Shown in pieces: positions 4,464 to 61,154 of a DNA stretch of 64,000 nt (positions are counted from its first letter, which is position 1; each line of letters starts with the position of its first letter). Below the pieces are notes generated by a model that was not told the DNA's origin, made no database searches, and was given only the letters and a program-made list of their open reading frames with translations. Source of the stretch: Verrucomicrobiota bacterium (GTDB lineage: Bacteria > Verrucomicrobiota > Kiritimatiellia > JAHIZV01); the NCBI GenBank assembly GCA_018814445.1, contig JAHIZV010000169.1, forward strand, positions 2,162-66,161, given 5' to 3'. The translations under genes were made by a program, and so were the position numbers.

Positions 4464-4486
4464 GTTTGAGCCCTCAGGTTTCCAAT

Positions 4487-8112: not shown

Positions 8113-8154
8113 CCCGAAACCCGAAACCCGAAACCCGAAACCCGAAACCCGAAA
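8113..8154. repeat. perfect heptamer tandem repeat (CCCGAAA)x6
   Basis: Read directly; lies between the Na/Pi transporter stop and the barrel gene start. Confidence 0.95.
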
Positions 8155-8156
8155 GG

Positions 8157-9827: not shown

Positions 9828-9950
9828 GTCGTCTCCTCTGTTTCCTTCGATAGGGAAAGGTTAGCAGAGTATCAGCAGGGGTAAGGTCGTACTCAAGCTT
9901 TCTTCGACAGAAAATCGCGTTGCGTAGAAAAAAGGAGAAAACCACTAGAT

Positions 9951-11484: not shown

Positions 11485-11655
11485 CCCGCAATCTCCTAAG
11501 TAGATAGGGAACTATATTTGAAAGGGAGAGAGGGGGAAAGGGAGAAAGAGTGTGGGAGTTTGAATGTGTGGGAGTGTGTGTGGGCTGCCACTGGTTATTC
11601 GTGACTAATGACGAACGAAGAGCAACTGACTCATGACCGGCCGAACGCCTAATGA

Positions 11656-12087
11656 CTATCTTTCCGGCAGTCTTCCGCGCGCATCAAAGAGAACTACCAG
11701 CGTCAGGATGATCAGCCCGATGTTTCTGACGATATTATGCGTGCCGATGGTCTCGGCGTCCGGATTGACGGAGAAGCATCCGCATGTGATATCGATGCCC
11801 CGGAGCATCGTTGAACCTATCGCTGCGGTAAACACGATCAGCATAATCAGGACGATCCACGCGGCGGCTTCACGGAAGGATTTGGCGAAGAAGAGGGCGA
11901 ACGCGCAGAACAGTTCGAGCATCGGAACAAAAAGGGCGACTGCGTTGATCGCCGAATGGGGGAGTATCTGGTAGTAGAAAACGAGGGTCGCGAACTCGTG
12001 TGGTGAAAGGATTTTGGAAATGCATGCCAGCAGGAACACGATTCCGATGGCTATGCGAGATGAGGTTGCGAGGAAGCGCCAGTTCAT
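11656..12087 (-). CDS. MauE/DoxX-family membrane protein
   Basis: Four hydrophobic segments; RGIDITCGCF motif. Confidence 0.88.
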   Translation of the reverse strand: MNWRFLATSSRIAIGIVFLLACISKILSPHEFATLVFYYQILPHSAINAVALFVPMLELFCAFALFFAKSFREAAAWIVLIMLIVFTAAIGSTMLRGIDITCGCFSVNPDAETIGTHNIVRNIGLIILTLVVLFDARGRLPER

Positions 12088-12608
12088 AACCCCTCCTCCG
12101 TTGCGTAGCCCGCGTCTACCCAGGCTTTCATTCCTCCGACGAAGAGAACGACATTTGTGTAGCCCTGATTCTTGAGAAAGAGGACCAGTTCATACGACTC
12201 GTCGCACGCGATGCCGGAGCAGTACGCAAGGATGGGTTGTTGAGGCGTGATGTACGCCTGAGCCGTCATGAATGCGAGATCCACGTCGTCATATGGAAGA
12301 GGAAGAGCCGTAGGAAGGTGTCCCTCTTCATAGTCCGAACGTGGCCGCGCGTCGAAAACGATATGGCGGCCCGCTTCGATGATCGCATGCGTCTGATCGA
12401 GATTGGCGAGAGTGATCCCGGCTTTCAGAGCCTTCGCCTCGATGTAGTGACTCCAGTCCTCTACCCACAGAATACGGTCAGGACGCAGCGCGTTCAGAAT
12501 CGCGGCCCCGGCCGCGGACACGACAATCAACAGAAGGATATGAGACAGCAAAGGTCCCGTTCGGCCCCTGCGTGAAGCTACATCCGTCAGTATCTGTCCC
12601 GGTTGCAT
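12084..12608 (-). CDS. membrane-anchored rhodanese-domain protein (start uncertain)
   Basis: One TM segment, then DARPRSDYEEGHLP, YCSG and GGMKAW; overlaps the MauE-like gene. Confidence 0.85.
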   Translation of the reverse strand: MQPGQILTDVASRRGRTGPLLSHILLLIVVSAAGAAILNALRPDRILWVEDWSHYIEAKALKAGITLANLDQTHAIIEAGRHIVFDARPRSDYEEGHLPTALPLPYDDVDLAFMTAQAYITPQQPILAYCSGIACDESYELVLFLKNQGYTNVVLFVGGMKAWVDAGYATEEGL

Positions 12609-12677
12609 GGGACGGAGCCTAACAACTTCTCTGCCGAAGGCCAATCATAACAACGGGCAGGCGGCTTCACGCGACCA

Positions 12678-14108
12678 TCAGTCTGAGGAGTTCCACTTCA
12701 TCGCGGCAACCTGTCCCTGCCGCGCGTAGTCCGCCGCTTCGCCGAGGATGCGTGCGGCTTCCTGCGGGGCGTGGAAGCCCATCGAGTTTTCGGCGGCAAT
12801 GTAGTCGAGACGCCACTGCGCTTTACGCTGCAACTCGAGCGATTCCTTCAGTTGGTCTTCCGTTGCGCCGGCGGCTTTGGCCGCGGCAATAGCATCCAAC
12901 TGGTCCATCAGGGCGGCTCCGGCCCGTTCGAGCAGGTCGTGATTCCGCTCCTGGATAGCATCGACCCGCGCCTTGATTTCGTCCTCCGGGAAATGGTGAC
13001 ACACCTGACACGCACGGTTGATATTCAACAGCGGACTACGCACCCAGTGATCAGAAACCTTGGTCGCGCCGTCACGCATGTAAGGCATATGGCAATCGGC
13101 GCATGCCACACCACTGCGCGCATGGATGCCCTGGCTCCACATTTCAAATTCGGGATGCTGGGCTTTGAGTATTTCCGCTCCGCTTTCCTTATGCCTGTAG
13201 TCGAAGAAGCGCGTTCCATCCTCGAATGTCTTCTCGTTCCAGAACTTCTCCAGGTCCTCCACTTTGAGGCCGTTGCCCCACGGGAATGTGAGCGGCATTT
13301 TGTTCGCGCAGTAGTATTCGACGTGGCATTGCCCGCAGACGAAGGAACGCATTTCGGTTCGCGTTGCATCAGTATTCGGATCATAGGGTTCTTTCTTTCC
13401 GGCGTCGCGCCACTGCTGGATTGAAGGAAGATGCGGGACCTCCGCTTCCGAGTCGGCCAGCGCGCGGATGCCGGTGATGAATCCGGGGCGTGTCACGCGC
13501 AACTGCATCGTATCGGGGTCGTGGCAGTCGACACATGAAACCGGATGGTCATGACCCATCTCGTGAAGCATCGCGTTCAGGTCCTTGTACGAGTACTGAA
13601 AGGTCTTTTCAAATCCCGCCATTGCGTCGCCGTCGCCCAGCTCGCGATAAAGCGGCATGATGGATGCGTGGCAGTGAAGACAGGAGCCGGATTGAGGTTT
13701 CGTCTGCCGCTCGGTTTTTTCCTGATCGACCAGCATGTAGGCGTGCCCGCGCCGGTCCCGGTAGTCGATGGAAAATGCATAGCCGAGAAACATACGCTTG
13801 AGCCATGGATCGCGCTCAATCTTCTCCGCCGGCAGGGCCTCGCTACCCCCATGGCCTCCGAATCGTGTGCGGGTCGTAATGGCGGTTCGCTTGTACGAGT
13901 CATATTCCTTGGGCCAGTTTTTACCCCATAGCTCCGGATCGGTGTCGTTTTCAGTCACTTCAACCAGGCGGACGTAGGGCGTTCTGGTATCGGCCTTTCG
14001 CTCGAATATGTTGACCAGCAATGCGGTCACCAGCGATGCGGCGACGGCGACAACTATGACGATAATGGCGAAAAGCGCCTGCAGACGTGATCTTGATGAT
14101 GCGTTCAT
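12678..14108 (-). CDS. nrfA: ammonia-forming pentaheme cytochrome c nitrite reductase NrfA (CXXCH first-heme variant)
   Basis: Five CXXCH motifs, [14 protein letters not shown], diagnostic [17 protein letters not shown] and [10 protein letters not shown]. Confidence 0.95.
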
Positions 14109-46280: not shown

Positions 46281-46407
46281 TAGAGCGAATTCACAGAAAC
46301 TGTAGCCGTGATATGCGCAATGGATGGCCGGCTTCCACGCCGTCCGCGGCCGCGGTGTAACGCGGCTGTCCAGAGAAAACGGCTATGACATTGTTTGATC
46401 TGCTCTA
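46281..46407. repeat. 127-bp nested palindrome with TAGAGC...GCTCTA ends (MITE-like)
   Basis: Paired arms TAGAGC/GCTCTA, TAGCCGT/ACGGCTA and TGGATGGCCG/CGGCTGTCCA; the right end coincides with the modC stop. Confidence 0.65.
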
Positions 46408-47481
46408 GCTTAGATACTTCACTGCGTAGGTTTTGAACATACACCAGACCATGCCGCCTTCGCGAAGTCCCAGATGAGAGGCTGCACTGTGCGTGACCTC
46501 GGCGAGGAGTTTCACGCCTGCATCGACCGTGCACAGCGTGCAGTCCGGAGCCTGGGTGAGCCGCTCGATTCGTCCCTCTATCTGGTTCTGTAGTGACACG
46601 TCATCCGCCCGTTTCGACGCCAGCACAAGGTCCTCCGCCCTCACCGACACATAGAGATCGGCTCCGGTTCTGTACTCCTCCGCATAGGGCGCGCGTATCG
46701 TTTGATCGCCTGCGCCGAGAGACGTGATGCCATCCGCGGAGGATGTGTCAGTCACATTCACTTTGAAGATGTTGACCAGCCCGCCGCGGAGCTTCCGCCG
46801 AAGAGCGGGTGACTCGTGAATCAGATCAAGGTAGCTTCCGAATCCCACGGTCTTTCCTCCGTCCATCACGAACAGCTCATCCGTGAGTTGAAGAATGTCG
46901 GTCAGGTCGTGGCTGACGACCAGCATGGGAACATCAAGGGCGGAGCGAATCCGCCGAATAAAGGGAAAGACTCTCTGGCGCAGTTCCATATCCACCGCGG
47001 AGAACGGTTCGTCCAGCAGGAGCAGACGGGGTGACGCCATTAAGGCTCTTCCGAGCGCCACGCGCTGACTTTCGCCTCCCGAGATGTCCGAAGGATTCCG
47101 CGCAAGGAGGCCTTTCAACTCGAGCATTTCCGTAACCAGTTCGAATCTCCTCTCGCGTTCAACGGCATGAAGTCTCCCCGCGCCATATCGAAGATTACGG
47201 CTGACGGTCAGGTGCGGGAACAGGCGTGCGTCCTGAAAGACTATGCCGATTCGGCGTCTATGGGCGGGGACGCAAATGCTCCGAGCCGTATCAATCAGCG
47301 TCTGACCGTCGAGATCCAGGCGGCCGTGGTCAGGTCGGATCAAGCCGGCGATGATATTCATCAGCGTGCTTTTTCCCGCGCCTGACGCCCCGAAGATCCC
47401 GGTTACTCCCGCGCTCGTCTGCAATGCGATATCCAGCTCGAACTCCGGGCGGAGATACTGTGCGTCGAGTCCGAGTCTCAT
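46405..47481 (-). CDS. modC: molybdate ABC transporter ATPase
   Basis: GASGAGKS, FQDARLFPHL, SGGESQRVA, LLLDEP and a C-terminal TOBE domain (SLQN). Confidence 0.95.
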   Translation of the reverse strand: MRLGLDAQYLRPEFELDIALQTSAGVTGIFGASGAGKSTLMNIIAGLIRPDHGRLDLDGQTLIDTARSICVPAHRRRIGIVFQDARLFPHLTVSRNLRYGAGRLHAVERERRFELVTEMLELKGLLARNPSDISGGESQRVALGRALMASPRLLLLDEPFSAVDMELRQRVFPFIRRIRSALDVPMLVVSHDLTDILQLTDELFVMDGGKTVGFGSYLDLIHESPALRRKLRGGLVNIFKVNVTDTSSADGITSLGAGDQTIRAPYAEEYRTGADLYVSVRAEDLVLASKRADDVSLQNQIEGRIERLTQAPDCTLCTVDAGVKLLAEVTHSAASHLGLREGGMVWCMFKTYAVKYLS

Positions 47482-48167
47482 GCAATCACCCCCATTCGCT
47501 TCTTGAAGCTTCGCACCCAGAACTCCGAAATGGCCAACGCGAGAAACGCTATCAGCACGGAGATAATCACGAGACGAAGTGCCGGTGCGTCTCCTCCGGG
47601 CGATTGCAGATATGTGTAAAGCGCCAGCGGAAGTGTACGCGTCTCCATGGGAATATTCCCCGCGAAGGTGATCGTGGCTCCAAACTCACCGATGCTTCTG
47701 GCGAAGGAGAGCACAAAACCGCTGACAACTCCGGGAAAAGACAGGGGCAATGTGATCCGGAGAAACGTCTTAAGCGGGTTGGAGCCCAATGTCCGCGAGG
47801 CTTCTTCGAGTCGAACGTCAACCATCTCCACAGCCGTCCGTATCGATCGCACGGCAAGAGGAAAAGAGACGACCATTGACGCGAGGACCGCGGCCTTCCA
47901 GGTGAATGCCAGGCGTATGCCGAGTGTGGAGAATATCCACTTTCCCAGGACGCCGTTGCTTCCGAACAGAACCAGCAGAAGGTAGCCGGTGACAACCGGC
48001 GGCAATACGAGCGGAAGGTGAATCAGGCTGTCGAGCACGAGTTTGCCTGCGAACTCTTTTCGCGCCAGCAGCCAGCCGCAAGCGATGGCCGGCACCAGAT
48101 TGACGCCGGCGCACCACAAAGCGATCTTTGCGGAAAGGGCAAGAATAGACCACTCTTCCGGTGTCAT
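47478..48167 (-). CDS. modB: molybdate ABC transporter permease
   Basis: LPLVLPPVVTGY and FARSIGEFGATITFAGNIP. Confidence 0.96.
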   Translation of the reverse strand: MTPEEWSILALSAKIALWCAGVNLVPAIACGWLLARKEFAGKLVLDSLIHLPLVLPPVVTGYLLLVLFGSNGVLGKWIFSTLGIRLAFTWKAAVLASMVVSFPLAVRSIRTAVEMVDVRLEEASRTLGSNPLKTFLRITLPLSFPGVVSGFVLSFARSIGEFGATITFAGNIPMETRTLPLALYTYLQSPGGDAPALRLVIISVLIAFLALAISEFWVRSFKKRMGVIA

Positions 48168-48280
48168 GTTCGTCTTTGTCCTATCCAGGGCTCCGCGCCT
48201 ATTCTGGAGGGTCGGCTTTCACGCTGACCATACTGGCGCCATCACTCAGGTTTGACCATGAGCCATTTTCATTGGTGAAT

Positions 48281-49054
48281 CTACTGTTCGACCGATACAA
48301 ACCCCAGTGCTTCGGCCAGCTTTGCAGCAGCAGGACTTACCATGAAATCCAACAGTCTCTTCGCGCCGGGACGTGACGGCCGGCAACAGGCGACACTGTA
48401 TCTTATCGGGTCGTGAAGTTCAGGCGGGAAGACCGCGACAACTCTCACTTTCTCCGAAATAGCAGCATCGGTCTTGTAGACGATGCCGAGTTGGGCCTCC
48501 CCCCTTTCGACCGTTGCCAACGCCGCGCGAACATCGAGACAGGGAAGCAGCCGGCCCTCAAGTTTCTCTGCCCATCCAAGTGAACCAAGTGCTTGCGCCG
48601 CGTAGCGTCCGGCGGGTACATGAGCAGGATCGCCCAGAGCCATATAGCCCTCGAACAACTCTGAAGGATCAACGTCAGCGGATATCTTCACTTCGATCCG
48701 ACTTTCGACAGGGGCGATCAGTACGAGGGCGTTGCTGAGAAAATCAACGCGCGTTTCCGGAAGTGTCAGGCCTCTCTCTTCGAGGTAGTCCATCCATTGA
48801 AGGTTGGCGGAAAGAAAAATGTCCGCTGGCGCGCCCTGCGCGATCTGGCGTGCAAGGAGTGATGAAGAGGCAAGATTCAGTCTGACTTTTTCACCGGTTT
48901 GCTCTGTATAGGCGTCAGCAACGTCTTGAACGAAATCCGTCGTGCTGGCTGCGGCGCAGAGAAGCAGGGATTTATCCTCCGCGGGCGACGAAGTGATCAG
49001 GGATGCGAAGGCGAGAACCGAAGTCAAAAACGAGTTGAAATGCTTCAGTTTCAT
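48281..49054 (-). CDS. modA: molybdate-binding periplasmic protein
   Basis: AAAS, SSLLARQI.QGAPADIFLSA, VPAGRYA and VYKTDA. Confidence 0.96.
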   Translation of the reverse strand: MKLKHFNSFLTSVLAFASLITSSPAEDKSLLLCAAASTTDFVQDVADAYTEQTGEKVRLNLASSSLLARQIAQGAPADIFLSANLQWMDYLEERGLTLPETRVDFLSNALVLIAPVESRIEVKISADVDPSELFEGYMALGDPAHVPAGRYAAQALGSLGWAEKLEGRLLPCLDVRAALATVERGEAQLGIVYKTDAAISEKVRVVAVFPPELHDPIRYSVACCRPSRPGAKRLLDFMVSPAAAKLAEALGFVSVEQ

Positions 49055-51207
49055 ATCTTCTGCGGGCGGGGCGCTTTGATCACTACTTCGCGCGAACCGT
49101 CGAGGGGCAGTTTGAATTCCAGTTCCACGATGTCGCCGGCGTGGCTTCGCGGAGGTCGACCCCAGCCCATCATAACCATCGCTTCATCACTGCCGGGCTT
49201 AGGCTTGAGAACCTTGATGTCCCTGCCGATTTCCTGTTCACGGCCGTCAACACAGACACCGAGCAGCGTCCGCTCCGCGACGAGATTGACGCGAATTCGC
49301 CAGGTTCGTTCCTGCAGTTGCCCGGGAAACCGGCCTTCCGTCGCGTTCACCTTGACCGAGACTTCGTCCTTGCCCCCGGTAATTTCAATTCTCGTTCGCG
49401 CGTATTCGCCGGACTGATACCCGAGGCCTTCTCCCGCGTCTTCGTATAGCTCGCGCAGGATTGTTCCCGCATGGCCGGGAAAGACCATGACCGTGATGGG
49501 GTCCCATGGGCGCTGGCCCGTGTAGCCCATTTCCGGAGCAGTGATAAGTGCGCCGCCGCGACGGACATACAGCGGGATGTGGCGAAGTGTCGATTTCTCT
49601 TCAATGGTCGTGGGTCCGTACACGATGTTGCCCGTCCACAAGTTCTGCCACATGCCGGGAGGAATCCATACCTGGGAGGTCGCAACGCGCGTCTTCTTGT
49701 CGGCGGGCTTCGTAACGGGAGCAACAAGCAGGTCATCGCCGAGGAGATATTCATCACTGCGATGAGCTTCGCGGTGCTCCGGCCACCCCAGAGACGGCTT
49801 GCGCAGGATGGGTGTGCCATCATCATAAGCCCGTCGCGCAGCGGTGTAGATGACTGGGAGGAGGCGGTAGCGTAGCTTGGCATATTCGCGAACGATGTCC
49901 GCCGCCTCTTCTCCGAAGAGCCAGGGGTAGCGGAAGATGCCTTCCCCGTATGTGCCGTGAATACGCGTGATCGTTCCAAGACATCCGTATTGAAGAAAGC
50001 GCACATACAGCTCGTCGTCCGGCTGACCGATATGACCGCCCAGGTCCTGGTGAACATATGGCAGAAGTCGCAGGCCTTCCTCAACGCTGTCGCAGATGCC
50101 TGTCTCGAGTTCCTTGTAGGTCGCCTGAATGTCTCCTGTCCACCAGATTGGAAACCGGTGTGAACCATGGTTCCGTGAGCGCATGCTCATAATCATCGTG
50201 CGTTTGTCCGGCGTGTGAGAGCGGATGATGTTCCAAAAGAGATACTGTCCCCACAGCGCTTGATCCATACCGGGATCCGGCTCCCGGATACTGTCGGGCC
50301 AGTTCTGATCGTACCACCACGAGTCGAGTCCCATGTCGAGGAAACCTGTTAATCCTTTGTACCGGAACTTCAGCATGGCAGGTTCCAGCGCCGCCATGCC
50401 GTTGGGTTGTGGATGATCGTTAAACATGAGGCGCACATTCTTCTTGTGTGCCCGGTCGATGAACCTCTGCATGTCCGGGAAGTATTTTTTCTCAACGTCA
50501 TAGCCGCCAGAACCGCCCACGCGCCAATCCGTATCCAGTACGAAAACGTCCAGTGGATAGTCCCTCTCGCAAAAAGCATCGATATCCCTGAGGGCATCTT
50601 CCTCCGTGAACGGATAGTAGAGACTGGTCCAGAAGCCGAACGCCCACAACGGGAGCAGAGGGATCTGTCCCGTGAGTTTCAGATACTCTTTGCGGGAGTG
50701 GTCCGGGCCCTGCGAGAGCAGGAAGAGGTATTTGTCCCGTCCCTTGAAACTCAGATCCCATCCGCTTGTGTGATAGAGGGGATCAGATTCAGAGATCTGA
50801 TCTTCCGGAGGGGGACACGCCCCCCACGGTGGAGGAATGAGTCGGGGACTGTCCGAAAGGACCCATGCCCGTTTCTTGCCCGGTGGAGCAAAGCAGTCAG
50901 GCTCGTACGAGGTCTTGTCCCCTCCCGACCAGATCGAAGTGCCGGAGTCCTTCTCACGCACCTCGATGCTGCTCCAGACCTTGTCGACGTTTCCTGTCCG
51001 CTCGGCAAGGATCATGCAACCTGGTAATTCGATTCGCATCAGTGATCCGTCCTCAATCACCCGAAACTCGGCACCCGGCCACTCCCGATCCACAACCAAC
51101 AACGTCGGGTTGTCCTCGAATCCCTCCGGTCCCCGCTCTTCAAAACGAAGCAGGGTGGGCGACAGTATACTGACCCGTACGAAATCAGATATTTGAAGAT
51201 ATTTCAT
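49051..51207 (-). CDS. GH31 alpha-glycosidase
   Basis: PLWAFGFW, PLDVFVLDTDW, WWYD, WTGD, DLGGH, LRYRLLPVIY, LGDDLLVAP and LYEDAG. Confidence 0.92.
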   Translation of the reverse strand: MKYLQISDFVRVSILSPTLLRFEERGPEGFEDNPTLLVVDREWPGAEFRVIEDGSLMRIELPGCMILAERTGNVDKVWSSIEVREKDSGTSIWSGGDKTSYEPDCFAPPGKKRAWVLSDSPRLIPPPWGACPPPEDQISESDPLYHTSGWDLSFKGRDKYLFLLSQGPDHSRKEYLKLTGQIPLLPLWAFGFWTSLYYPFTEEDALRDIDAFCERDYPLDVFVLDTDWRVGGSGGYDVEKKYFPDMQRFIDRAHKKNVRLMFNDHPQPNGMAALEPAMLKFRYKGLTGFLDMGLDSWWYDQNWPDSIREPDPGMDQALWGQYLFWNIIRSHTPDKRTMIMSMRSRNHGSHRFPIWWTGDIQATYKELETGICDSVEEGLRLLPYVHQDLGGHIGQPDDELYVRFLQYGCLGTITRIHGTYGEGIFRYPWLFGEEAADIVREYAKLRYRLLPVIYTAARRAYDDGTPILRKPSLGWPEHREAHRSDEYLLGDDLLVAPVTKPADKKTRVATSQVWIPPGMWQNLWTGNIVYGPTTIEEKSTLRHIPLYVRRGGALITAPEMGYTGQRPWDPITVMVFPGHAGTILRELYEDAGEGLGYQSGEYARTRIEITGGKDEVSVKVNATEGRFPGQLQERTWRIRVNLVAERTLLGVCVDGREQEIGRDIKVLKPKPGSDEAMVMMGWGRPPRSHAGDIVELEFKLPLDGSREVVIKAPRPQKI

Positions 51208-51242
51208 AATCACAATTGGGGGTAAGACTCTGAATCTTCGTC

Positions 51243-52487
51243 CTATGCACCGTTCACTAATTGCTTTCTTAACATAACCAATGGATGAATCAGGTAGAAA
51301 AATGGGAGCGTCCATTTTTTTCTGAGTCTGTAGTAGCTCTGAATTCGGACGGGAGACGCAAAGAGAAGTCGGCCGATGAAAAGGAGGCGTACCGGCCTGA
51401 AGAAGAAGCCGTGATGCACATCCATGCTCGCCTGGATCAGGCGGTCCACCCAGCCGATGCTGAGCAGTCTTCCGGTCAGCGTGGTGTCTGTTTTGAGCAT
51501 ATCGGTGGTAACGCCCAGAGAGGCCAGCACTTCCGCGGCCCGCGACCCAGGCAGGAGCAAGTCCAGCAGGCGGAGCGTTTCGACGAGTTCGCCATTAACG
51601 TTTTGCTCGCGCGATCTTTCCCCGATGACATTCCAGTTCAGCTCTTCTTTTTCAAGAAAGAGCATGAGATCGATGAACCACACGAGCCGGTTATCTCGCG
51701 ACGGCTTGAGGAACCACTCGGCGGGGCGGCTGTCACGGAGTCCCAGGAAGTTGATCAGGCCGTGTTTGGCCACGTGTAGACACAGGTATATCAGGGAGTC
51801 TTCCGGGGAGAGCGTCCCGATCTCGTGCCCGCTGGCGCGGAATGTGGTGACTCTGCTCAGAACGGCACGCATATCGATCCGCGCGAGATTCGCCTCATCC
51901 ACCAGGCCCCAATGAAGTTCAATCCAGGGAAGGGAGTCGCTCTCGTGCTTGAGGACAAGATGAAAATGCGCCCGCCTCATCATCAGTTCACTGAACCAGT
52001 TTCCCGCGACCGAATAGCCCATCGTCTTAAGGACATCCAGAGCGCGCTGGACGTTTCGTCTGTGTACAAGGATGTCGACGTCGTCATACGGCCTGACGAA
52101 AAGGCCGTGGTAGTAGGATTCATGCAGGTAGGGACCCTTCAGCACGGCGTAGATCAACCGGTTCTCGCGGAAAAGCGCATCGATCTTTCCCAGCATGACG
52201 ACGGTCACCTTGTGATGCATTTGCCGGCGACGGAGTTCCTGTGAAAGATGATCGCGGTACAGCTGCGGGATATTCATGTCGTCACGGGGAAGCAGAACCT
52301 GCGCGGCAAGAGGAAGCAGTCTGTGCGCGGCGAGAGCTTCGTAGGCCGTAGCCCAGTTCTCTATCTGCAGCTGTGCCCCGTCTTCGCGATGTGTAGCCAC
52401 GCCCAGCTTCCGCATGCAGTCCGTCAGTATGCTTTCAGCGGAGACCGTGCGCGGGTTGGATTTCGTTATGACCCGTTCTTCGTCCAT
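51243..52487 (-). CDS. nucleotidyltransferase-family protein (NTP_transf_5-like)
   Basis: VLKGP, RPYDDVDILV, IELHW, LCLHVAKH and LVWFIDL. Confidence 0.87.
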   Translation of the reverse strand: MDEERVITKSNPRTVSAESILTDCMRKLGVATHREDGAQLQIENWATAYEALAAHRLLPLAAQVLLPRDDMNIPQLYRDHLSQELRRRQMHHKVTVVMLGKIDALFRENRLIYAVLKGPYLHESYYHGLFVRPYDDVDILVHRRNVQRALDVLKTMGYSVAGNWFSELMMRRAHFHLVLKHESDSLPWIELHWGLVDEANLARIDMRAVLSRVTTFRASGHEIGTLSPEDSLIYLCLHVAKHGLINFLGLRDSRPAEWFLKPSRDNRLVWFIDLMLFLEKEELNWNVIGERSREQNVNGELVETLRLLDLLLPGSRAAEVLASLGVTTDMLKTDTTLTGRLLSIGWVDRLIQASMDVHHGFFFRPVRLLFIGRLLFASPVRIQSYYRLRKKWTLPFFYLIHPLVMLRKQLVNGA

Positions 52488-52545
52488 TAGCGACTCAACA
52501 CTTTGCCACGCTATCTCAGGAAAGAAAGTCTTTCGTGTCCCACAT

Positions 52546-52602
52546 GGAGGGCGAAGCTCGTGACACGGCGAAGCCCGCAGGGCGCAGATGGCTGCTGAGC
52601 CG
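52546..52602. repeat. possible REP-like remnant (GGAGGGCGAAGCTC...CTGCTGAGCCG)
   Basis: GC-rich hairpins in the divergent gap; similar GGAGGGTCGGC..GCTGACC hairpin near 48206-48229. Confidence 0.35.
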
Positions 52603-52691
52603 AATCATCGACGTATTATGTTTGCAACAGGTCGTCAAACTGGGTATTTCCTGACCGCCCGAATGCAATAAGGAAGAACGGATATACGACT

Positions 52692-53129
52692 ATGAACGAG
52701 GCTATGAATTTCTCAATAAACAGCCAGGATGTTGTCAACGAGACGATCGAAGGCGAAGTGATCATGATCAACATGAAAAGCGGCAACTACTACAGTGTTG
52801 ATCGAGTGGGCGCCGACATCTGGACCTGTCTTGAGAAAGGCCTGGCATCCGCGGATATTGTGGACGTCGTCGCGAAGAAGTACGCAGTGGATGCTGATAC
52901 GGTGAAAGACGAAGTGGACCGGTTCTTGAGCGAATTGAATGCGGAGAATCTTCTCTGCCCCGCTGAATCGTCCGCGTCCGCCGACGGGTTTGCCCTTGAG
53001 CCCGCAGGTGAGGGAGACTCGTTTCAGGCCCCTTCGCTTGACAAGTACGACGACCTTCAGGATCTGCTTCTCGCGGACCCGATTCACGACGTAGACGCCG
53101 GAGGCTGGCCGAACAATCCGGAGGCCTGA
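52692..53129 (+). CDS. PqqD/RRE-domain protein with acidic C-terminal extension
   Basis: RRE pattern (GEVIMIN...YYSVDRVGADIW...Y.VD...DV..FL.EL....LL) over residues 1-90, then a linker and FQAPSLDKYDDLQDLLLADPIHDVDAGGWP. Confidence 0.88.
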   Translation: MNEAMNFSINSQDVVNETIEGEVIMINMKSGNYYSVDRVGADIWTCLEKGLASADIVDVVAKKYAVDADTVKDEVDRFLSELNAENLLCPAESSASADGFALEPAGEGDSFQAPSLDKYDDLQDLLLADPIHDVDAGGWPNNPEA

Positions 53130-53146
53130 ACGGCGGGAACCTGAAT

Positions 53147-54217
53147 GTGACCGATCCTGCGACATCACCCGAACAGGAAGCTCGTATGATCGAGTTCCTC
53201 CGGGTCGCGCACGATCTGTTCGAGCGCGCCGCGGCGAACGCGGGCGGTGTCCGGGAGCACGTCTTTGAGATCGCCGGCCTCCACCTGAAACTGCGTTTCG
53301 CGGGCGAAGCGATTGTTCCCCATGTTCTGCCCGCGCTGGAACATCTGTCCGTTCCTCTCCATGAAGACGTAAGCGCCACGATCGACCTGTGGGATGAAGC
53401 CTCGACGGGCATCGTCCTTCCCCGTCCGCCGTGGAAAGAAACGGACTACGTCATACGCGGCGAGATTCCCGGCCTGTGCAGTAGAGAAATGCACACGGCA
53501 TTCGATCCGGGCTTTCGAGGACTCAGCATGCTCCACATCGCGGCGGGACGAGGGATCTTCCATCTGCCTGACGCGTCGCTGATTCCGTATTACGAGCACT
53601 CCTCCCCTCTGCGAAGCATTCTTCACCGGTGGCTTGAGGAGAACCGCAGGCAGTACATGCACGCGGGCGCAGTCGGGACGGAAAATGGCGGCGTGCTTAT
53701 CGCGGGTAAGGGCGGCTCCGGCAAATCAAGCACCTGCCTGAAATGCCTGTGCGCGGGCATGCTGTATGCCGGCGATGACTACACCGTGCTTGATCTTGAT
53801 GACATCCCCCGCGTTCACAGCCTCTACTGCACCGCCAAGCTTAACGCCGAAGACGTAGTGCATTTCCCCGAACTCAAAGGAGCAGTCCGGAACGAAGAAA
53901 CCATGGACGCCGAAAAGGCCCTGCTCTTCGTGCGTGGCTTCTTCCCCGGGAACATCGTCAAAGCGCTCCGGCTCCGGGCCGTGCTGATTCCGAGCGTAGG
54001 ACATCCGGGAACAGAGATAGTCCCCCTCTCACCGATCGCAGGACTGAAAGCCCTCGCCCCCAGCACCATCTTCCAACTCCCCGGCGCGGGCAGAAGAGCC
54101 TTCGAAACCCTCTCCGCGCTGGTAAAAAGGGTACCCTGCCACGCCCTCCATCTCGGCCCGGACCGAAACGAGATTCCTGATGTAATCAGATGCTTTCTGG
54201 AAGACGTTCAGCAGTAG
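53147..54217 (+). CDS. HPr-kinase-related serine kinase
   Basis: HAGAV....GVLIAGKGGSGKSST and YAGDDY; 17 bp after the RRE gene. Confidence 0.85.
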   Translation: MTDPATSPEQEARMIEFLRVAHDLFERAAANAGGVREHVFEIAGLHLKLRFAGEAIVPHVLPALEHLSVPLHEDVSATIDLWDEASTGIVLPRPPWKETDYVIRGEIPGLCSREMHTAFDPGFRGLSMLHIAAGRGIFHLPDASLIPYYEHSSPLRSILHRWLEENRRQYMHAGAVGTENGGVLIAGKGGSGKSSTCLKCLCAGMLYAGDDYTVLDLDDIPRVHSLYCTAKLNAEDVVHFPELKGAVRNEETMDAEKALLFVRGFFPGNIVKALRLRAVLIPSVGHPGTEIVPLSPIAGLKALAPSTIFQLPGAGRRAFETLSALVKRVPCHALHLGPDRNEIPDVIRCFLEDVQQ

Positions 54218-54335: not shown

Positions 54336-57300
54336 TCAATTCTGCCAGAATGTGTAACGGTAACAAGCGCCGAAGGCGCAGATATTTGCATAAGCTGAGC
54401 CGCTCCACTTGGAGTCAAATCCACATTGTTTTACAGAACAACCACCACTATTGCAGCACGCCTCCAATGCAACACCACGTGATGCCGAGATATTTGCTGT
54501 TGCTGAAGCCAATTTGTCCAGCCCCGCCAAAGACGTCTCAAGTTCACCGCCACCGGTTGCTGTCAGAGTGACACCTCCCATGATCTTGCCACAGCCTCCG
54601 CTCTTTCCCTCGCAGCCGCCATCCACGAATTCAACCGATCCAGCCACCGTGCCTTCCACAGAGCCTTTGACACCGATGTAGCCGGAAATAGAGATATCCA
54701 TACCGGGTACACCTATATTGAACTGAGGGCCACCTACTACGGAAGCGCTTCCCTCGAGCGAGAAAGTCCACGATCCTCTTGTCTCCTCAGTCCACCCGCC
54801 AGGACAACACTCCTCGCACACCTCTCCTCTCAACTGAGTGGCAATCTTCATATCCCCCTGCAAACTAATCCAGCCGACAGGAGGGCCGATGTGGAAATCG
54901 CCGAGTCCCAATGAAAAGTCCTTATAGACGGCATGACAGTTGCGCTTAGCTGTCAAGCCTAGGGGGTCTACGTACACAACTGGACGATTCTCGACGAAGA
55001 CGTACAGATGTTGACCTCCTTGCTCTCCGATAGGATCCCGGGACAGCCATCTTCCCGAACTTGGGTGGTAATGCCGGTAGCCGAAATACAATAGCCCACT
55101 CGCGCTATCCAGTTCCTTTCCGTTGAATAGGAACCGCGACGTTTGGTTCGGCTGACTCGATACGAGAGTACCGAAGGGCGCGTATTCTAAACCGGCCATT
55201 TGCTCGTATGCATAGGTTGCCGCAATGCTCCCATTACCAGAGTTGAGCGGATTCATCAGCTCACCGGGATCGTTAACATCAATGCTGACGCCGAGGATTC
55301 CGCCGATGCCTCCAGCACTGTCAAGTGTTCCGGAGATGTCCATTCCTCGAACACAGACCTCGAGGTTCGAACTCTCACCATCCAGCACGGCCAAGGGAAT
55401 AAAATGACTATAGACGTACAGATTTGTATGACAGGCGCCCCCTTCGCCCTGAGTACGCTTATACCTTCGAGCCAAGCCGTCATATTGGCTTCCCATTACA
55501 TTCAATCCCGTTGCGAGCTTCGTGGCCCGAACAAGATGGTCTGCTTCGTCAAACGCATAAGCGAACTCTCCGTCGTTCGTCAGATTGCCGTTTGCATCGA
55601 AGGCGTAGGAATGTCCGCTGGCAACGACGCTGATCCGGCTGGTTGCGGACCGGCCGAAGACGTCGGTGGCAATGGCTATCCATTCGTTGGGTCCCGGTAC
55701 GACGGCCTGGTTGGTGACGACAAATGTTCCGTCGCTGAAGGTGTATACCGGTTGACTATTAACGGTAATGACAGCGTCGGTGATATTGACTGAGCCCATG
55801 ACGGCCATTACCCCCGCCCAGCCGCTTGTGGTGAGCTGATTCAGTTCGTTGTAACGAGTCGATGTTACAAAGCCGTTCTCGACCTTCTGGGTCATGTTTC
55901 CGGCGGGATCGTATGCGTAGCGGAACGAGTAACCCGGCCACGCCGAATCATCACCCATGTAGCCTTCGGCTGAAGTCAGTTGTCCGATGGCGTCGTAACC
56001 GTAGTCAATCCGCCTGCCGTCCTCGCGAACTACCCGGGTCCGTTGATCATGTCCGTCATAGGTGTACGCGAACGAGAGAAGAACATCTCCGGAGGATTTC
56101 TTATGCACAAGATTCGTGAGCCGCAGAAGGGCGTCATAATGGTAGACGGTTCTCACTCCATTCGGGCGAATGAGTTCAGCGGGAAGCCGGCCGTTGCGAG
56201 TGTACATGTAACTGTACGAGCCTTCCGGCGCGGATACGCTGACAATGCGGTCCAGTGAGTCAAAACCATAGCCGACGCTGATCCCGCAGTAGGCCATGTT
56301 GGTCAATCGCTTGCTGGCGTCGTAGCCATACAGGACGCTGTCGTTCTGGAAAGGACCATCCGTACCGGTTTCTTTCGTGCAGCCCTCGACGTAGGACCAC
56401 GTGGTCGTACCCACGCTGTCGATCATCTTTGTTCTTCGATTCAGGGCGTCGTACTCGAAGCCGACGTCCGGATCGCTGTGATAGTTGACGTTGGTCAGAT
56501 TGCCGTTCAGATCATAGGAGTAATAAGTCCATCGCCCGATGCAGTCCCGCTTCGCGCTCAATTGACCTTCATCGTCGTATTGATACTGCTCGCCGCTTAG
56601 ATCGTTGAATACCCGCGCCGTCTTTCGGCCTTCAGCATCGAAGCTGAAGTACGTGTGATGGCCGTTTTGATCGACGAGGTTGGTAACGTTGCCGAAAGCA
56701 TCATATTGATAGCCGATGCTGTGTCCGGAGTTGTCGACACGATTCGTCACCCGACCGAGAACATCGCGCTGATAGATTGAAATACGTCCCGCGCGGTCCG
56801 TTTCCCGCGCCAGGTACGTGTTGGTGTACTGTCTGTCGACAAACGTACCATCCGGCAGATAAGTCCGCAGTGGCCGGCCAACTTCATCGAAGGTGTTGGA
56901 GATGACCAGTCCGCTCGCGTCACGAAACGCCACGAGCCATCCCAACGCATTATACCAGTTGCTCTGCACCAGCAGTCCGTCACGCATGATGCCGGTCAGT
57001 TTGCCAAGGCCATCGTAGGTACGCTGTTCGGCAATCCCGTTGGGGTCCTGCATGCCGGTCAGTCGCCCCAATCCGTCATAGTAGTTACTGGTGATGAACC
57101 CTCGGCAGTCGCGGATGCTTATAGGCCTGTTGGCGGCATCATACGTATACGATATTGCTTCTCCCATTGCGTTTGTCCGGCAAAGCCGGTTGCCGACCAG
57201 ATCATATGAGTACGTGGTCGTGCTTCCGCCGGGCGAAGTCTCTGACGTGAGGTAGCCAAACTGGTCATAATCGAGCAAGGTGGCCCTTCCGAGACGGTCT

Positions 57301-60300
57301 TCCTGAGTGCGGATACCGTCCGGACCGTATGACCAGGTGCGAAAGGCGCCCGATCCGACATCTGTTTCCATGATCTTCCGGCCCAGTCCATCGTATGCAT
57401 TCGTGATGATCTGTCCGGAGGGTGTGGTTTCAACTCGCAGTCTGCCTTTGTAGTCGTAGGTGTAGTACGTCGTATAGCCCAGCGGGTCGGTCTGCGATTC
57501 GGGATAACCCCATACGTCATATCCGACGATCGTCATTCCTCCGGATGGTGAGACAACATTGGTCGGTTGACCATAAGCGTTGTAGCGAATGGTCTGGGTG
57601 CTTCCGTCGGGGAAGGTTGTTGAAATCGGATTCCCGCGCCAGTCGTAAGTGTACCGTGTAACGTGGCCGAGAGCGTTGGTCGTGGTCACAAGATGACCAC
57701 GCTCGTCATAACCATACTTTGTGACGTTGCCATGCGGATCGGTTACTGCAATGGTGCGTCCAAGTGAATCGATCGTGTTGGACCAGAATGTGCCGTCCCG
57801 CTTACGTTCTGTCTGAACCTGGCCAAGTGCATCGTAGGTGAACGTCTGGTAGGTTCCGTCAGGATAGTCAACGCGCGTAATCCTGTTGCTTCCATCCCGT
57901 GTATTTGTCGTCGTGCGGCCCAACGGGTCGGTCATTGCCTGCAGATGCACGGGATACGTGTTGTCGGTGTAGCTCCAGTTCCAGCTTCTTCCCGCACTGT
58001 CGACTTCGGATGTGACTACGCCGAAATGAGCTGACAGGCCGTACGTGTGCGTATTGCCGAGGCGATCCACGTACGACGACATGAACCCCTGATTCCCGAC
58101 ATAACTGTAATTCTGCGCCTCTCCGGCTTCGTTCGTGATGACCGCTACGCGCGTGCGATTCTCGTCCGGGTAGTAGCAGTACTTCTTTGAGCCATCCCCG
58201 TACTCGACCACATGCATGCCCGGCTGATTGGTCGGGAACGTCAGCCTCGCCACGAGCGCGCTGGTTACCAGGTGCCGCTCTTCATAGATCATGCCCGACA
58301 CGCCGACAGGCGCCTCGGGGCTGTTGTCTCTTTCCCGCTGATAGGAGTAGGCCATTCGGCTGTAGGGCGGCGGATACATTGGGTCATCTGCGCCTATAAG
58401 CACGGGGCGCCAGTATTTCCCCGGGGGAGGCGAGCGGTAAGAATACTTGGCCGATGTGCCGTCACCATAGTTCGCGCGTCTCAACGCGCCGTGACCGATT
58501 CCGTCAATGAACATGGAGTCATACTCGTAACTGACCACGCGGCCATCACTGCCGGACGCGCAGAGGATAAACTCCGGCGCAATCCAGATCACGGAACTGA
58601 AGTCGTTCGCCTCGTCCACATACGGATTGTTCGTGTCGGTAAGCCAGTTGGTTCCGTTCACGATGAACTTGTACTGATAGACTCCCTCCGCAAGATCGAC
58701 CGCTCCGGTCCAGAGGCCGCCTCCCGCATCGTACATCTGATAGTTCGATGTCGGGCTGTAATCGCGCCCGGGCAGACGCACGCAGGAACCCGTCAGACTG
58801 ACGAAGTTGAACGCGAAATTCCCGAACGTATCTTTGCTTCCCGACGCTCCGTCCCCGAGGAAATACCCCGACAGATAACGGTCGTTGCCGCTTGTTCCGT
58901 CGCTGGCGAGCACTCCTGCAATGAAACATGTCGAAACAGAAGATACCGCCTGTGCGTTCAGCGACGTCCACGGTATGCTCACCTCCCAGCGTTCCGTGAT
59001 CCGGTTGCCGTCTCCGTCCGTTGAAGTTGTTGGATTGGTTCCGGTTCCGTCGAACTGCGAAATGCGAGCCCCGGCCACCGCATTGAATCCGCCCGAGCCG
59101 CCAAGATAGAAAGCGCCCTGGCCATATTGGTATCCTGAACCGATCTGGAACGCATAGGAATTGGCATCCCCCCATTCATCGCCCAGCAGGATGGCGATAT
59201 CCATCGGGTGGGCAAACTTCACGTTATGCAAGTAATCGAGAGCGTAGGGTTGGCCGGTCTTCTGCCAGAGGTTCGACGCATTGTCGGTAAGCGTGTCAAA
59301 ATCCAGAAAGACAATCATCCCGTTGTGGTCGTCTGACACATCAAGGCCAATGCCGCCGACATAGAAGTTAGTCGCGTCATAATTAACGTAGATTTGGCCG
59401 AAGCTTCCGTATCCGCCTGAACCGGAGGTGATCCATGATCCGCCGTTTGTATTGAAGTCGAAGTTATCACCGATGTTATTCTGGTCGGCTCCTGGCGGGT
59501 CTGCGGTGACGAGCGGAGACCCGTTCGTCGCGGCGTTACTTTCAGGGGTACAGCACGGGGAGGACTCCTGCAGTTGCCAATAAGGATCACGGCCGGGCAT
59601 GCGAAGCCTTGTTCCTGTCAGGCGCATAAAATTGAAGCCGAACTCGTTGTTCTGATCGAGCGGACCCTCTGCGGAATCTCCCAGGTATCCTGCCGAAAGA
59701 TAGCGGTTGTTGCCGCTGACATTCTGGCTCGCGACTACGCCCGCGACAACGCAGGTCGTGATGGAAGAGATATCGGATGCGCCAAGATCCGACCACGGTA
59801 TCTTAACTTCCCAGCGATCTGTGAGTCGATTTCCGTCGTCGTCGGTGGAAACGGTTGCATTGGTTCCTTCGCCATCAAACTGTGAGACCGTTGCCCCGCT
59901 TACAGGGACAAACGCCCCGCTGCCGCCGAGAAGGAACACACCCTGTCCAAAGTTGTAGCCCGACCCGAGTTCGAAGGAAGGATAGTTACCGTCACCATAC
60001 TCATCGCCCAGCACCATGGCGATATCCATGGGGCGAACGAATTCGACATTGTGCAAGTAATCCAGACCGTTGGGCGCGCCGGTCTTATTCCAAAGATTCG
60101 AGGCGTTTTCAGCCAGTGTGTTGAAGTCCAGAAACAGGATCATAGCATCGCCATCGCCCAGCATCTCGCAGTCGTATGCTCCGACATAGAAATTTGTCTC
60201 ATCGTAGTTGAAATAGACATTCCCGAGACTCCCAAATGAACCACCCGCGGAGGATGTTATGAGTGGACTGCTATTGGTAGTCAGGTCGAACTTGTCGCCC

Positions 60301-61154
60301 ACGTTGTTCTGCTGTATTCCAGGAGGATCACTTGACACCGCCGGGGAATACTCGATCGGTGAGCGAAGGCTGAAATCAGCTCCGTTCCAGGTTGCGGCAA
60401 TGACAACGGAAGTGGCTTCGGCATCAGCCCACTGAAAACTGATTCGACCGGGCGAAACGAAGTTGGTCGGGTTTCCGTACTCGATCTGGATGAAATGATT
60501 TGTGTTGGGATCAGCCACTTTCACGAGCCGGCCCTGTGAGTCATAGCTGAAAGAGGAGAAGCGCTCAAAGGCGTCATAAACGCCCTGCATCTGAAATGTC
60601 GAGCCGGGCCCTTTATAGAACGCATGCCGTGTGCCGTCTGTTGAGAGCAGATAGAACTGGTTGGGATCGATGTCGGACTGCAGTAGACGATTCTGAACCG
60701 CGGCGCCGGCGACGTAGTAGAGACTGGTCGATGATTCCTTGTAGTAGTAGGAGTCAACACCTGAAGGCCAACTTACGCGGATCACGGGGCCATAACTGTT
60801 GGCTCCGACCTCCGAAATGTCCCAGAAGTAGTTGTGACGCCAGTTTCCCGCCGTGCCAAACTCGGAGACGATGTTCCCAAGCCAACGGCTTGACGAGATT
60901 CTCTCGAACTTCAGTTTGTCCGCGCCCACGCCATCGGAAAGAGCGAGATCTGACACTTCCCGATGGACATTGCCGTTGTAAATCCAGAAAGGATTGCCTC
61001 CGCTTCCGTCAGGTCTGCAACAGTCACCATCCGGACAGTCGTCGGGTATGTTTTCACAGTTCTGACCAAAGGATCGGCAGGACAGCAACAAGACTGCCGC
61101 AACCAGAATGAACCACGAGCATTTGTCATTTCTCACCACTCCCTCCCTCGTCAA
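54336..61154 (-). CDS. secreted RHS/YD-repeat protein (2272 aa) with inserted carbohydrate-binding-like domains and a Cys-rich C-terminal domain
   Basis: Signal peptide, many YD repeats, and RHS core GKELD..GLLYFGYRHY....GRWLSRDPIG...DPLGL. Confidence 0.93.
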   Translation of the reverse strand: MTREGVVRNDKCSWFILVAAVLLLSCRSFGQNCENIPDDCPDGDCCRPDGSGGNPFWIYNGNVHREVSDLALSDGVGADKLKFERISSSRWLGNIVSEFGTAGNWRHNYFWDISEVGANSYGPVIRVSWPSGVDSYYYKESSTSLYYVAGAAVQNRLLQSDIDPNQFYLLSTDGTRHAFYKGPGSTFQMQGVYDAFERFSSFSYDSQGRLVKVADPNTNHFIQIEYGNPTNFVSPGRISFQWADAEATSVVIAATWNGADFSLRSPIEYSPAVSSDPPGIQQNNVGDKFDLTTNSSPLITSSAGGSFGSLGNVYFNYDETNFYVGAYDCEMLGDGDAMILFLDFNTLAENASNLWNKTGAPNGLDYLHNVEFVRPMDIAMVLGDEYGDGNYPSFELGSGYNFGQGVFLLGGSGAFVPVSGATVSQFDGEGTNATVSTDDDGNRLTDRWEVKIPWSDLGASDISSITTCVVAGVVASQNVSGNNRYLSAGYLGDSAEGPLDQNNEFGFNFMRLTGTRLRMPGRDPYWQLQESSPCCTPESNAATNGSPLVTADPPGADQNNIGDNFDFNTNGGSWITSGSGGYGSFGQIYVNYDATNFYVGGIGLDVSDDHNGMIVFLDFDTLTDNASNLWQKTGQPYALDYLHNVKFAHPMDIAILLGDEWGDANSYAFQIGSGYQYGQGAFYLGGSGGFNAVAGARISQFDGTGTNPTTSTDGDGNRITERWEVSIPWTSLNAQAVSSVSTCFIAGVLASDGTSGNDRYLSGYFLGDGASGSKDTFGNFAFNFVSLTGSCVRLPGRDYSPTSNYQMYDAGGGLWTGAVDLAEGVYQYKFIVNGTNWLTDTNNPYVDEANDFSSVIWIAPEFILCASGSDGRVVSYEYDSMFIDGIGHGALRRANYGDGTSAKYSYRSPPPGKYWRPVLIGADDPMYPPPYSRMAYSYQRERDNSPEAPVGVSGMIYEERHLVTSALVARLTFPTNQPGMHVVEYGDGSKKYCYYPDENRTRVAVITNEAGEAQNYSYVGNQGFMSSYVDRLGNTHTYGLSAHFGVVTSEVDSAGRSWNWSYTDNTYPVHLQAMTDPLGRTTTNTRDGSNRITRVDYPDGTYQTFTYDALGQVQTERKRDGTFWSNTIDSLGRTIAVTDPHGNVTKYGYDERGHLVTTTNALGHVTRYTYDWRGNPISTTFPDGSTQTIRYNAYGQPTNVVSPSGGMTIVGYDVWGYPESQTDPLGYTTYYTYDYKGRLRVETTPSGQIITNAYDGLGRKIMETDVGSGAFRTWSYGPDGIRTQEDRLGRATLLDYDQFGYLTSETSPGGSTTTYSYDLVGNRLCRTNAMGEAISYTYDAANRPISIRDCRGFITSNYYDGLGRLTGMQDPNGIAEQRTYDGLGKLTGIMRDGLLVQSNWYNALGWLVAFRDASGLVISNTFDEVGRPLRTYLPDGTFVDRQYTNTYLARETDRAGRISIYQRDVLGRVTNRVDNSGHSIGYQYDAFGNVTNLVDQNGHHTYFSFDAEGRKTARVFNDLSGEQYQYDDEGQLSAKRDCIGRWTYYSYDLNGNLTNVNYHSDPDVGFEYDALNRRTKMIDSVGTTTWSYVEGCTKETGTDGPFQNDSVLYGYDASKRLTNMAYCGISVGYGFDSLDRIVSVSAPEGSYSYMYTRNGRLPAELIRPNGVRTVYHYDALLRLTNLVHKKSSGDVLLSFAYTYDGHDQRTRVVREDGRRIDYGYDAIGQLTSAEGYMGDDSAWPGYSFRYAYDPAGNMTQKVENGFVTSTRYNELNQLTTSGWAGVMAVMGSVNITDAVITVNSQPVYTFSDGTFVVTNQAVVPGPNEWIAIATDVFGRSATSRISVVASGHSYAFDANGNLTNDGEFAYAFDEADHLVRATKLATGLNVMGSQYDGLARRYKRTQGEGGACHTNLYVYSHFIPLAVLDGESSNLEVCVRGMDISGTLDSAGGIGGILGVSIDVNDPGELMNPLNSGNGSIAATYAYEQMAGLEYAPFGTLVSSQPNQTSRFLFNGKELDSASGLLYFGYRHYHPSSGRWLSRDPIGEQGGQHLYVFVENRPVVYVDPLGLTAKRNCHAVYKDFSLGLGDFHIGPPVGWISLQGDMKIATQLRGEVCEECCPGGWTEETRGSWTFSLEGSASVVGGPQFNIGVPGMDISISGYIGVKGSVEGTVAGSVEFVDGGCEGKSGGCGKIMGGVTLTATGGGELETSLAGLDKLASATANISASRGVALEACCNSGGCSVKQCGFDSKWSGSAYANICAFGACYRYTFWQN

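Follow-up and report, generated by a model that had tools for sequence, protein, structure and literature searches.

The present study concerns a PqqD-family protein with a conserved C-terminal tail, together with its neighbouring genes, in a stretch of 64,000 nucleotides (hereafter the window) of contig JAHIZV010000169.1 (C83, 66 kb) from the Verrucomicrobiota genome assembly GCA_018814445.1 (G000). Three open reading frames (ORFs) make up the set. An NTP_transf_5 (PF14907, 1.4e-37) nucleotidyltransferase-fold protein of 414 amino acids is encoded divergently on the minus strand at 51243-52487. Across an intergenic region of 204 bp (52488-52691) lies the plus-strand gene of the PqqD protein (52692-53129, 145 amino acids; PF05402, 2e-15), in which the winged-helix RRE (recognition element of peptides made by the ribosome and modified after translation, RiPPs) occupies residues 22-88 (52755-52955, from PF05402 and Foldseek). 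A Ser/Ala/Gly-rich linker joins this domain to the tail, which opens with the leader-like segment FQAPSLDKY (aromatic-xx-P-x-L; residues 111-119, 53022-53048, translation checked) and continues as an amphipathic helix and an invariant peptide recognized by conservation (residues 120-140, DDLQDLLLA-DPIHDVDAGGWP, 53049-53111). The third ORF begins 17 bp past the stop codon of this RRE-tail gene and encodes a P-loop kinase-like protein of the PEPCK/HprK superfamily (53147-54217, plus strand, 356 amino acids; 443 bits against the hidden Markov model (HMM) of its family), with the P-loop at 53705-53728 and a DD motif at 53774-53779. The nucleotidyltransferase, the PqqD/RRE domain, the linker and the tail were all found where the initial annotation had placed them, FQAPSLDKY starting exactly at 53022. 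The presence of a tail on the RRE itself, always beside a kinase-like enzyme, suggests a system of protein modification that is widespread and so far undescribed.

The usual means by which RiPP enzymes recognize separate precursor peptides is the RRE domain, and in lasso systems the B1-type RRE presents the peptide to the enzymes. The RRE of the window is of the lasso B1 type by fold as well as by sequence match. Its AlphaFold2 monomer model (mean predicted local distance difference test, pLDDT, of 84.7) has TbiB1 (5v1u/5v1v) as the nearest solved fold in Foldseek, with E 1.4e-6, 34-36% identity and a target-normalised TM of 0.9, and the lasso peptide synthetase B1 with leader (6jx3) is also among the top matches. 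The NCBIfam model lasso_PqqD_Bac gave 60.1 bits, under its cut-off of 80. Further, the FQAPSL of the tail fits the lasso leader motif, given as YxxPxL in the available portion of PMC6784204. The likeness to the TbiB1-TbiA and 6jx3 complexes covers both the RRE domain, for which they are the best match, and the YxxPxL-type segment; unlike in those complexes, the leader-like segment is here on the same chain, C-terminal to the RRE, and its binding in the groove is a prediction. Residues 111-120 have a pLDDT of 93 in the monomer model and include a strand at 117-119, followed by a helix at 122-128, and residues 131-145 fall to a pLDDT of about 50. The strand probably pairs with the RRE, in which case the leader-like segment would be held in cis. 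The docking anticipated in the initial annotation is favoured by the confidently placed segment and its strand, and the identity of the strand's partner is our reading of the model.

Relatives of the RRE-tail protein are numerous. A word-based search gave 48 homologues of 121-185 amino acids with query coverage of 92-100%, and 1385 cluster representatives at E<=1e-30 came from a profile search against 1.84 billion representatives. When one genome was scanned for each species, relatives were encoded in 448 genome stretches, and these belong to Chloroflexota, Acidobacteriota, Nitrospirota, Cyanobacteriota, Thermodesulfobacteriota, Verrucomicrobiota, Patescibacteria, Actinomycetota, Bacillota and other phyla. 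Within Verrucomicrobiota the family is present in just 2 of 301 sampled genomes, the window genome counted, and this rarity suggests a recent transfer. The relatives are labelled in databases merely as 'PqqD family protein', as are the ESM Atlas neighbours. The tail has no match among the NCBIfam models and only a chance-level match among PDB sequences (E 1.6).

Conservation in the family is highest in the tail, as judged from 85 sequences of many phyla. Six of the nine invariant columns of this alignment are in the tail, where D129, P130, H132, D135, W139 and P140 are kept in 85/85; the GNYYS strand of the RRE is also invariant or close to it. The leader-like segment has an aromatic residue at position 111 in 84/85, P114 in 77/85, L, I, V or M at 116 in 79/85 and K or R at 118 in 74/85. 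The family is defined here by an RRE followed by aromatic-xx-P-x-L and DPIHDxDxxGWP, with the kinase gene adjoining. The window protein has this architecture, keeps every invariant column and scores 167 bits against the family HMM. Residue 120 (53049-53051 in the window), immediately ahead of the tail helix, is T or S in 42/85 relatives and E or D in 35/85, with D in the window; such a split can be read either as phosphosite/phosphomimic-like or as a plain helix cap. Residue 120 as the sole target of the kinase was rejected, as the kinases keep all catalytic residues whatever residue stands there, and it may cap the helix.

The family also includes tandem proteins with two or three PqqD modules (268-398 amino acids) and five representatives in which PqqD modules are fused to the kinase (781-849 amino acids, with P-loop and DD motifs present); P0052, P0054, P0056, P0061 and P0067 are among the fused and multi-module proteins, and fusions of three PqqD modules with the kinase occur in this set. 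In the multi-module relatives read, an F-x-x-P-type segment follows most PqqD domains, the strict regular expression matching after some of them only. These leader-like segments trailing the PqqD domains are an independent support for a leader acting in cis.

The kinase is weakly matched by sequence, with 17.3 bits (E 0.0036) against PF07475, under the cut-off of 33.3, and 1e-5 against TIGR04352. Its assignment rests on motifs and fold. H172, G187, G190, G192, K193 and D210-D211 are invariant in 37/37 aligned kinases, the P-loop GKGGSGKS being residues 187-194 and the DD motif residues 210-211. The AlphaFold2 model (pLDDT 93.8) matched ATP-dependent phosphoenolpyruvate carboxykinase (PEPCK) in Foldseek at 1.7e-11 over about 390-410 columns, and HprK/P at 2e-7 over the P-loop domain only. 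Both lines of evidence confirm the window kinase as a member of the HprK/P-PEPCK P-loop superfamily and bear out the HPr-like kinase of the initial annotation. It shares the P-loop fold and the H...GxxGxGKS...DD signature with HprK/P and ATP-dependent PEPCK, whereas identity to them is 11-18%, the N-terminal domain aligns with PEPCK and not with HprK/P, and binding of the RRE is predicted for the C-terminal helices.

A sample of 80 related loci was used for the counts of kinases, neighbours and small ORFs. A kinase homologue is present in 74 of them (all E<=1.1e-29), on the same strand as the RRE-tail gene in 73/74 and directly downstream in 45/74. The loci without it are L029, L034, L048, L072, L085 and L090, and the sequence downstream of the RRE-tail gene is short in L029, L034 and L085 (<1.3 kb) and in L072 and L090 (<3 kb). 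Some kinases are fused to a GT2 glycosyltransferase domain (e.g. L033:8512-10329, 605 amino acids); counts from an HMM that included kinase-GT2 fusions were left unused, as that HMM also matches plain GT2 genes. The kinase is a fixed partner of the RRE-tail family. The survey of tail conservation and gene neighbourhoods that had been suggested for this locus has in this way favoured the idea behind it.

The kinase is also predicted to bind both the RRE and the tail. The prediction for the RRE-tail protein with the kinase scored 0.72, against 0.01 for the best of 3 controls; the mark of 0.72 is reached by 58/80 solved complexes and 2/110 mismatched pairs, which is a rough guide only, our own alignments having been used. 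At least 82% of the contacts agree between runs and the partner pLDDT is at least 80. In the predicted interface the RRE sheet (residues 15-35) is contacted by kinase helices 295-327. The interface also takes in tail residues 119, 121-122, 125-126 and 139-140 on one side and kinase residues 94, 119-124 and 141 and K188 of the P-loop on the other, given as two lists of residues and not as pairs. The natural fusions of PqqD modules with the kinase support such binding.

The neighbours of the pair were counted in the 40 related loci having at least 4 kb upstream and at least 7 kb downstream (the full-flank set), with the assignment to families verified for representatives. All 40/40 have GT2 glycosyltransferases, in 1-7 copies with a mode of 3; NTP_transf_5 is present in 32/40, an ABC exporter with membrane domain in 21/40 and a GlcNAc 2-epimerase-family protein in 5/40. 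The cluster GT2 enzymes resemble polysaccharide-type GT-A enzymes. Two isolates, Coleofasciculus sp. LEGE 07092 (L030) and Halomicronema sp. CCY15110 (L036), have the full cluster. The three-gene module of the initial annotation is present as described, yet it understates the system, for the relatives carry GT2 genes, a different NTP_transf_5 and often an ABC exporter.

The nucleotidyltransferase of the window belongs clearly to PF14907 (130.1 bits against a gathering cut-off of 31.2) and reaches only 58.5 bits against the HMM of the cluster NTP_transf_5 family, against 364.9 for another copy of the same genome, on contig C31. In a quick tree the C31 copy falls inside the canonical clade beside the copy of L023, whereas the window copy falls outside it, as the sister (SH-aLRT 100) of a paralogue on contig C65 with 40% identity. 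A second NTP_transf_5 of the window kind is present in 4/80 related loci (L019, L030, L056 and L061), and PDB sequences gave nothing meaningful for the window protein. The window-adjacent nucleotidyltransferase is a non-canonical paralogue for the RRE-tail system, and the role previously given to it is not supported, its type not being the one that usually goes with this family. The canonical GT4, GT2 and NTP_transf_5 genes of the window genome are intact and lie on other contigs than the pair. Contig C31 has a GT4 (412.6 bits against the family HMM), two GT2 (254.9 and 230.8) and the canonical NTP_transf_5, and contig C109 (L099) has an orphan pair of family GT2 genes (5933-7266, minus strand; 242 and 226 bits) directly upstream of threonyl-tRNA synthetase, on a 7.7-kb contig without a kinase or PqqD gene.

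The window genome has five PqqD genes, of which three stand with an HprK-like kinase and NTP_transf_5, and in two paralogous clusters free peptides were found. On C65 (L016), four tandem ORFs of 32-35 amino acids (11982-12449, minus strand) share an N-terminal P-x-(V/I) and a C-terminal AFT...Y segment. They are flanked by a PqqD gene (12486-12896) on one side and a B12-radical SAM gene (10347-11780) on the other, which are followed by an HprK-like kinase, an S24/NTP_transf_5 fusion and PhoD. The PqqD protein scores 32.8 against the cut-off of 35 of the NCBIfam HPr-rel-A PqqD model, and the whole looks like a free-precursor RiPP cluster. On C31 (L015) a single tight operon (1840-12458, minus strand) begins with GT4, GT2, GT2, NTP_transf_5 and a polysaccharide flippase, and continues with a 652-amino-acid radical-SAM-like protein, Transglut_core3 (lasso B2-like), PqqD, a PaaK/F390-synthetase-like ligase, a 25-amino-acid ORF and an HprK-like kinase. 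The 25-amino-acid ORF (within 2996-3127) has a strong ribosome-binding site and starts with YQAPEVIEY, close to the FQAPSLDKY of the window. B1 and B2 are present in this operon and an Asn-synthetase-type cyclase is absent; the ligase may take the cyclase role. The 43-amino-acid ORF of C31 had no homologues in a word-based search, a method weak for short peptides. The C31 cluster with its free peptide uses the same GT2, GT4 and NTP_transf_5 families as the RRE-tail clusters. Because free peptides are found in both the C31 and C65 clusters, such enzyme sets normally have as partners free peptides with a leader-type motif, and the RRE-tail family bears the motif on the RRE itself.

No free peptide was found in the 80 related loci, where 1284 small ORFs clustered only as pairs from near-identical genomes and a strict leader-motif scan gave a single dubious match. 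The same strict scan recovers the C31 peptide and 2/4 C65 peptides, and a relaxed pattern recovers 4/4. A word-based search of a large protein collection gave no proteins of 30-78 amino acids sharing tail words. In the window itself the 204-bp intergenic region is without a precursor-like small ORF, the small ORFs listed there all lacking the leader motif; its promoter-like matches are not above the shuffled expectation. A leader-motif scan of the window from 49 to 56 kb gave two spurious matches only, both overlapping genes. An Asn-synthetase-like macrolactam cyclase is not beside the window genes, and the B2 leader peptidase is absent from the window. The earlier statement that no lasso cyclase, B2 peptidase or free precursor adjoins these genes agrees with these scans. 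The proposal that the RRE is fused to its own recognition sequence, with a conserved peptide on the same tail, is well supported by the tail conservation, the lasso B1 kinship, the leader motif, the model, the free-peptide paralogues, the lack of free peptides at the 80 loci and the strong link to the kinase.

Among known systems the closest are those of paeninodin and pseudomycoidin, with which the RRE-tail system shares a B1-type RRE, an HprK-related P-loop kinase, an NTP_transf_5-type enzyme and often a half-size ABC exporter. In the pseudomycoidin type, according to the accessible part of PMC8498205, an HPr-kinase homologue phosphorylates the lasso precursor and the nucleotidyltransferase adds hexoses to the phosphate, so that by analogy a common logic of phosphate first and sugar on phosphate is likely. 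The RRE-tail system differs in having no cyclase, B2 protease, free precursor or C-terminal Ser acceptor. Moreover, it adds 1-7 GT2 enzymes, its peptide is invariant and not variable, and leader and peptide are fused to the RRE. Pairs of a PqqD-family chaperone and an HprK-related kinase are also catalogued in NCBIfam as HPr-rel-A (TIGR04352 kinase, TIGR04353 PqqD), HprK-related kinase B/GeoRSP and the SynChlorMet cassette. The window kinase, however, has 24.8 bits against the TIGR04352 cut-off of 200 and the window PqqD has no TIGR04353 match; the near-member of HPr-rel-A in this genome is the C65 cluster. In borosins of the omphalotin type the enzyme that modifies the core peptide, a methyltransferase, is fused to it. 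The likeness is that the precursor peptide is part of a biosynthetic protein, whereas here it is the recognition domain that bears the peptide, with the enzymes as separate proteins. The literature searched, in which subscription journals and supplements are incompletely covered, gave no description of the RRE-tail family, of its gene pairing or of PqqD-fused precursors, the papers retrieved being on lasso peptides or on unrelated subjects.

The best explanation, to which we give a probability of about one half, is that the tail is a fused precursor or carrier and that the pair is the core of a widespread system. The tail of the lasso-B1-type RRE would replace the separate precursor peptide of ordinary RiPP clusters. 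Its aromatic-xx-P-x-L segment would dock on the RRE in cis, and the helix together with DPIHDVDxxGWP would be the invariant 'core'. The C-terminal helices of the kinase would dock on the RRE sheet with the tail entering the cleft beside the P-loop, and the tail would be activated with ATP. NTP_transf_5 and GT2 enzymes would then decorate it with sugars, as in pseudomycoidin phospho-glycosylation. This order of ATP activation and sugar transfer is proposed because of the pseudomycoidin precedent, so far as the accessible part of PMC8498205 describes it, and the universal GT2 neighbours. In the window genome the glycosyltransferases and the canonical NTP_transf_5 are encoded apart from the pair, on C31, with the further GT2 pair on C109.

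Several observations weigh against a modified tail, and the weak point is the acceptor residue. No Ser or Thr of the tail is conserved among the 85 relatives. Residue 119 is Y in 75 of them, F in 6, H in 3 and C in 1, and past Y119 the window tail has zero hydroxyl residues. The last residue is Ser in just 18/173 relatives, and the window protein ends in Ala. A tail phosphorylated and then nucleotidylated, as the initial annotation had it, is not supported by these counts or by the analogue enzyme, which adds hexoses and not a nucleotide in the accessible part of PMC8498205. The invariant candidate acceptors are Asp129, His132, Asp135 and Trp139, and each of these would be unusual chemistry for this kinase family. 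Further, the invariant 'core' is unlike most RiPP cores and would suit a role in docking or activation too, and none of the contacts placed with confidence in the predicted complex involves the invariant residues 129-135. The multi-module relatives have 2-3 RRE modules yet a single DPIHD motif, all 15/15 relatives longer than 220 amino acids that match the motif pattern carrying DPIHD..GWP exactly once; the extra RRE modules are therefore not substrates. No conserved protease was found in the clusters, hence no released product is evident. Finally, the whole 66-kb contig is without family-type GT2 genes, against 40/40 full-flank relatives. A narrower version, which we put forward only tentatively, is that the tail is a built-in precursor, that the residue activated by the kinase is one without a hydroxyl group, for instance the invariant Asp or His of DPIHDVD, and that NTP_transf_5 and GT2 enzymes build a phospho-glycan on it.

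The lack of a conserved acceptor in the tail is also the reason why a sizeable share of the probability goes to a different role, in which the RRE-tail protein is an adaptor or activator subunit. It would stay unmodified, its RRE, cis strand and helix serving as a scaffold for the kinase and DPIHDVDxxGWP completing or regulating the active site, perhaps by supplying Asp/His as metal ligands, and a kinase-GT2 complex would work on a sugar, a lipid-linked glycan or another non-peptide substrate. The invariance of the motif across phyla is as expected for a binding epitope, and two or three RRE modules with one motif are better explained by such a scaffold than by a fused precursor. The two-domain kinase fold is nearer to the small-molecule kinase PEPCK than to HprK/P, the pair is accompanied by polysaccharide-type GT2 enzymes, GlcNAc 2-epimerase and flippase- or ABC-type exporters, and the want of a conserved protease points the same way. 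However, RREs of the lasso B1 type, to which this one belongs, are known to present peptides, and the paralogous clusters combine the same enzyme families with free peptides bearing the same leader motif. Moreover, the tail contacts are predicted in the inter-domain cleft by the P-loop, where a substrate would sit. We regard the adaptor role as possible, and somewhat doubtful on this evidence.

It is unlikely that the RRE is auto-inhibited, with the cis segment as a pseudo-leader displaced by a real precursor from elsewhere (e.g. the C31 peptide), which the kinase would then modify. The near-identical motif on free peptides of the same genome (YQAPEVIEY vs FQAPSLDKY) and the location of the canonical GT2 and NTP_transf_5 genes in the C31 cluster and not in the window would agree with it. 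The C31 and C65 clusters, however, each have their own PqqD and kinase, free peptides are absent from the 80 related loci, and the invariant DPIHD motif would stay unexplained. Still less probable is a stranded remnant, i.e. a pair cut off from its glycosyltransferases and non-functional in the window genome: the GT2-free contig and the presence in 2/301 genomes of the phylum, with the recent transfer it suggests, are in its favour, but both ORFs are intact with all invariant residues kept, and other contigs of the genome hold intact canonical GT4, GT2 and NTP_transf_5 genes. Least credible is a conventional lasso tailoring module of B1, kinase and nucleotidyltransferase with precursor, B2 and cyclase elsewhere, an alternative already named in the initial annotation, to which the B1-like RRE and the kinase-nucleotidyltransferase pairing known from paeninodin/pseudomycoidin clusters (accessible part of PMC8498205) would lend themselves, but which is opposed by the contigs of this genome, as none of its four Asn_synthase (PF00733) matches (on C132, C23 and C185 only) is on a PqqD-bearing contig and its sole Transglut_core3 (PF13471) gene stands on C31 beside its own PqqD, as well as by the 80 loci, where neither family is a conserved neighbour, and by the C-terminal Ser, which is not conserved.

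The genes flanking the three-ORF set are unrelated to it. A GH31 hydrolase is encoded at 49051-51315, and three adjoining minus-strand genes at 46405-49054 look, from their translations, like a molybdate-type ABC uptake set of binding protein, permease and ATPase, the ATPase ORF giving a weak match to the ABC HMM. Convergent with the kinase gene, a YD/RHS-repeat protein of 2272 amino acids with a Cys-/Gly-rich C-terminal region is encoded on the minus strand at 54336-61154.

With the tail taken as a fused precursor or carrier, this study bears on how RiPP-type pathways can be built. For an RRE to bear both a leader of its own and an invariant peptide would amount to a new design for such a pathway, and it would give a function to the long-catalogued and unexplained pairings of PqqD, HprK-like kinase and NTP_transf_5. 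It would also link RiPP-type recognition to glycan assembly, given the GT2 enzymes in 40/40 full-flank loci. The system is compact and testable, and the window genome offers built-in comparators in its two paralogous clusters with free precursors. If the tail is indeed a built-in precursor on which a phospho-glycan is made, the product would be a glycan primer anchored on a protein and supplied with its own leader or, once cut at the invariant Asp-Pro, a conserved glycopeptide for export, and this would be a new RiPP-like product class across many bacterial phyla.

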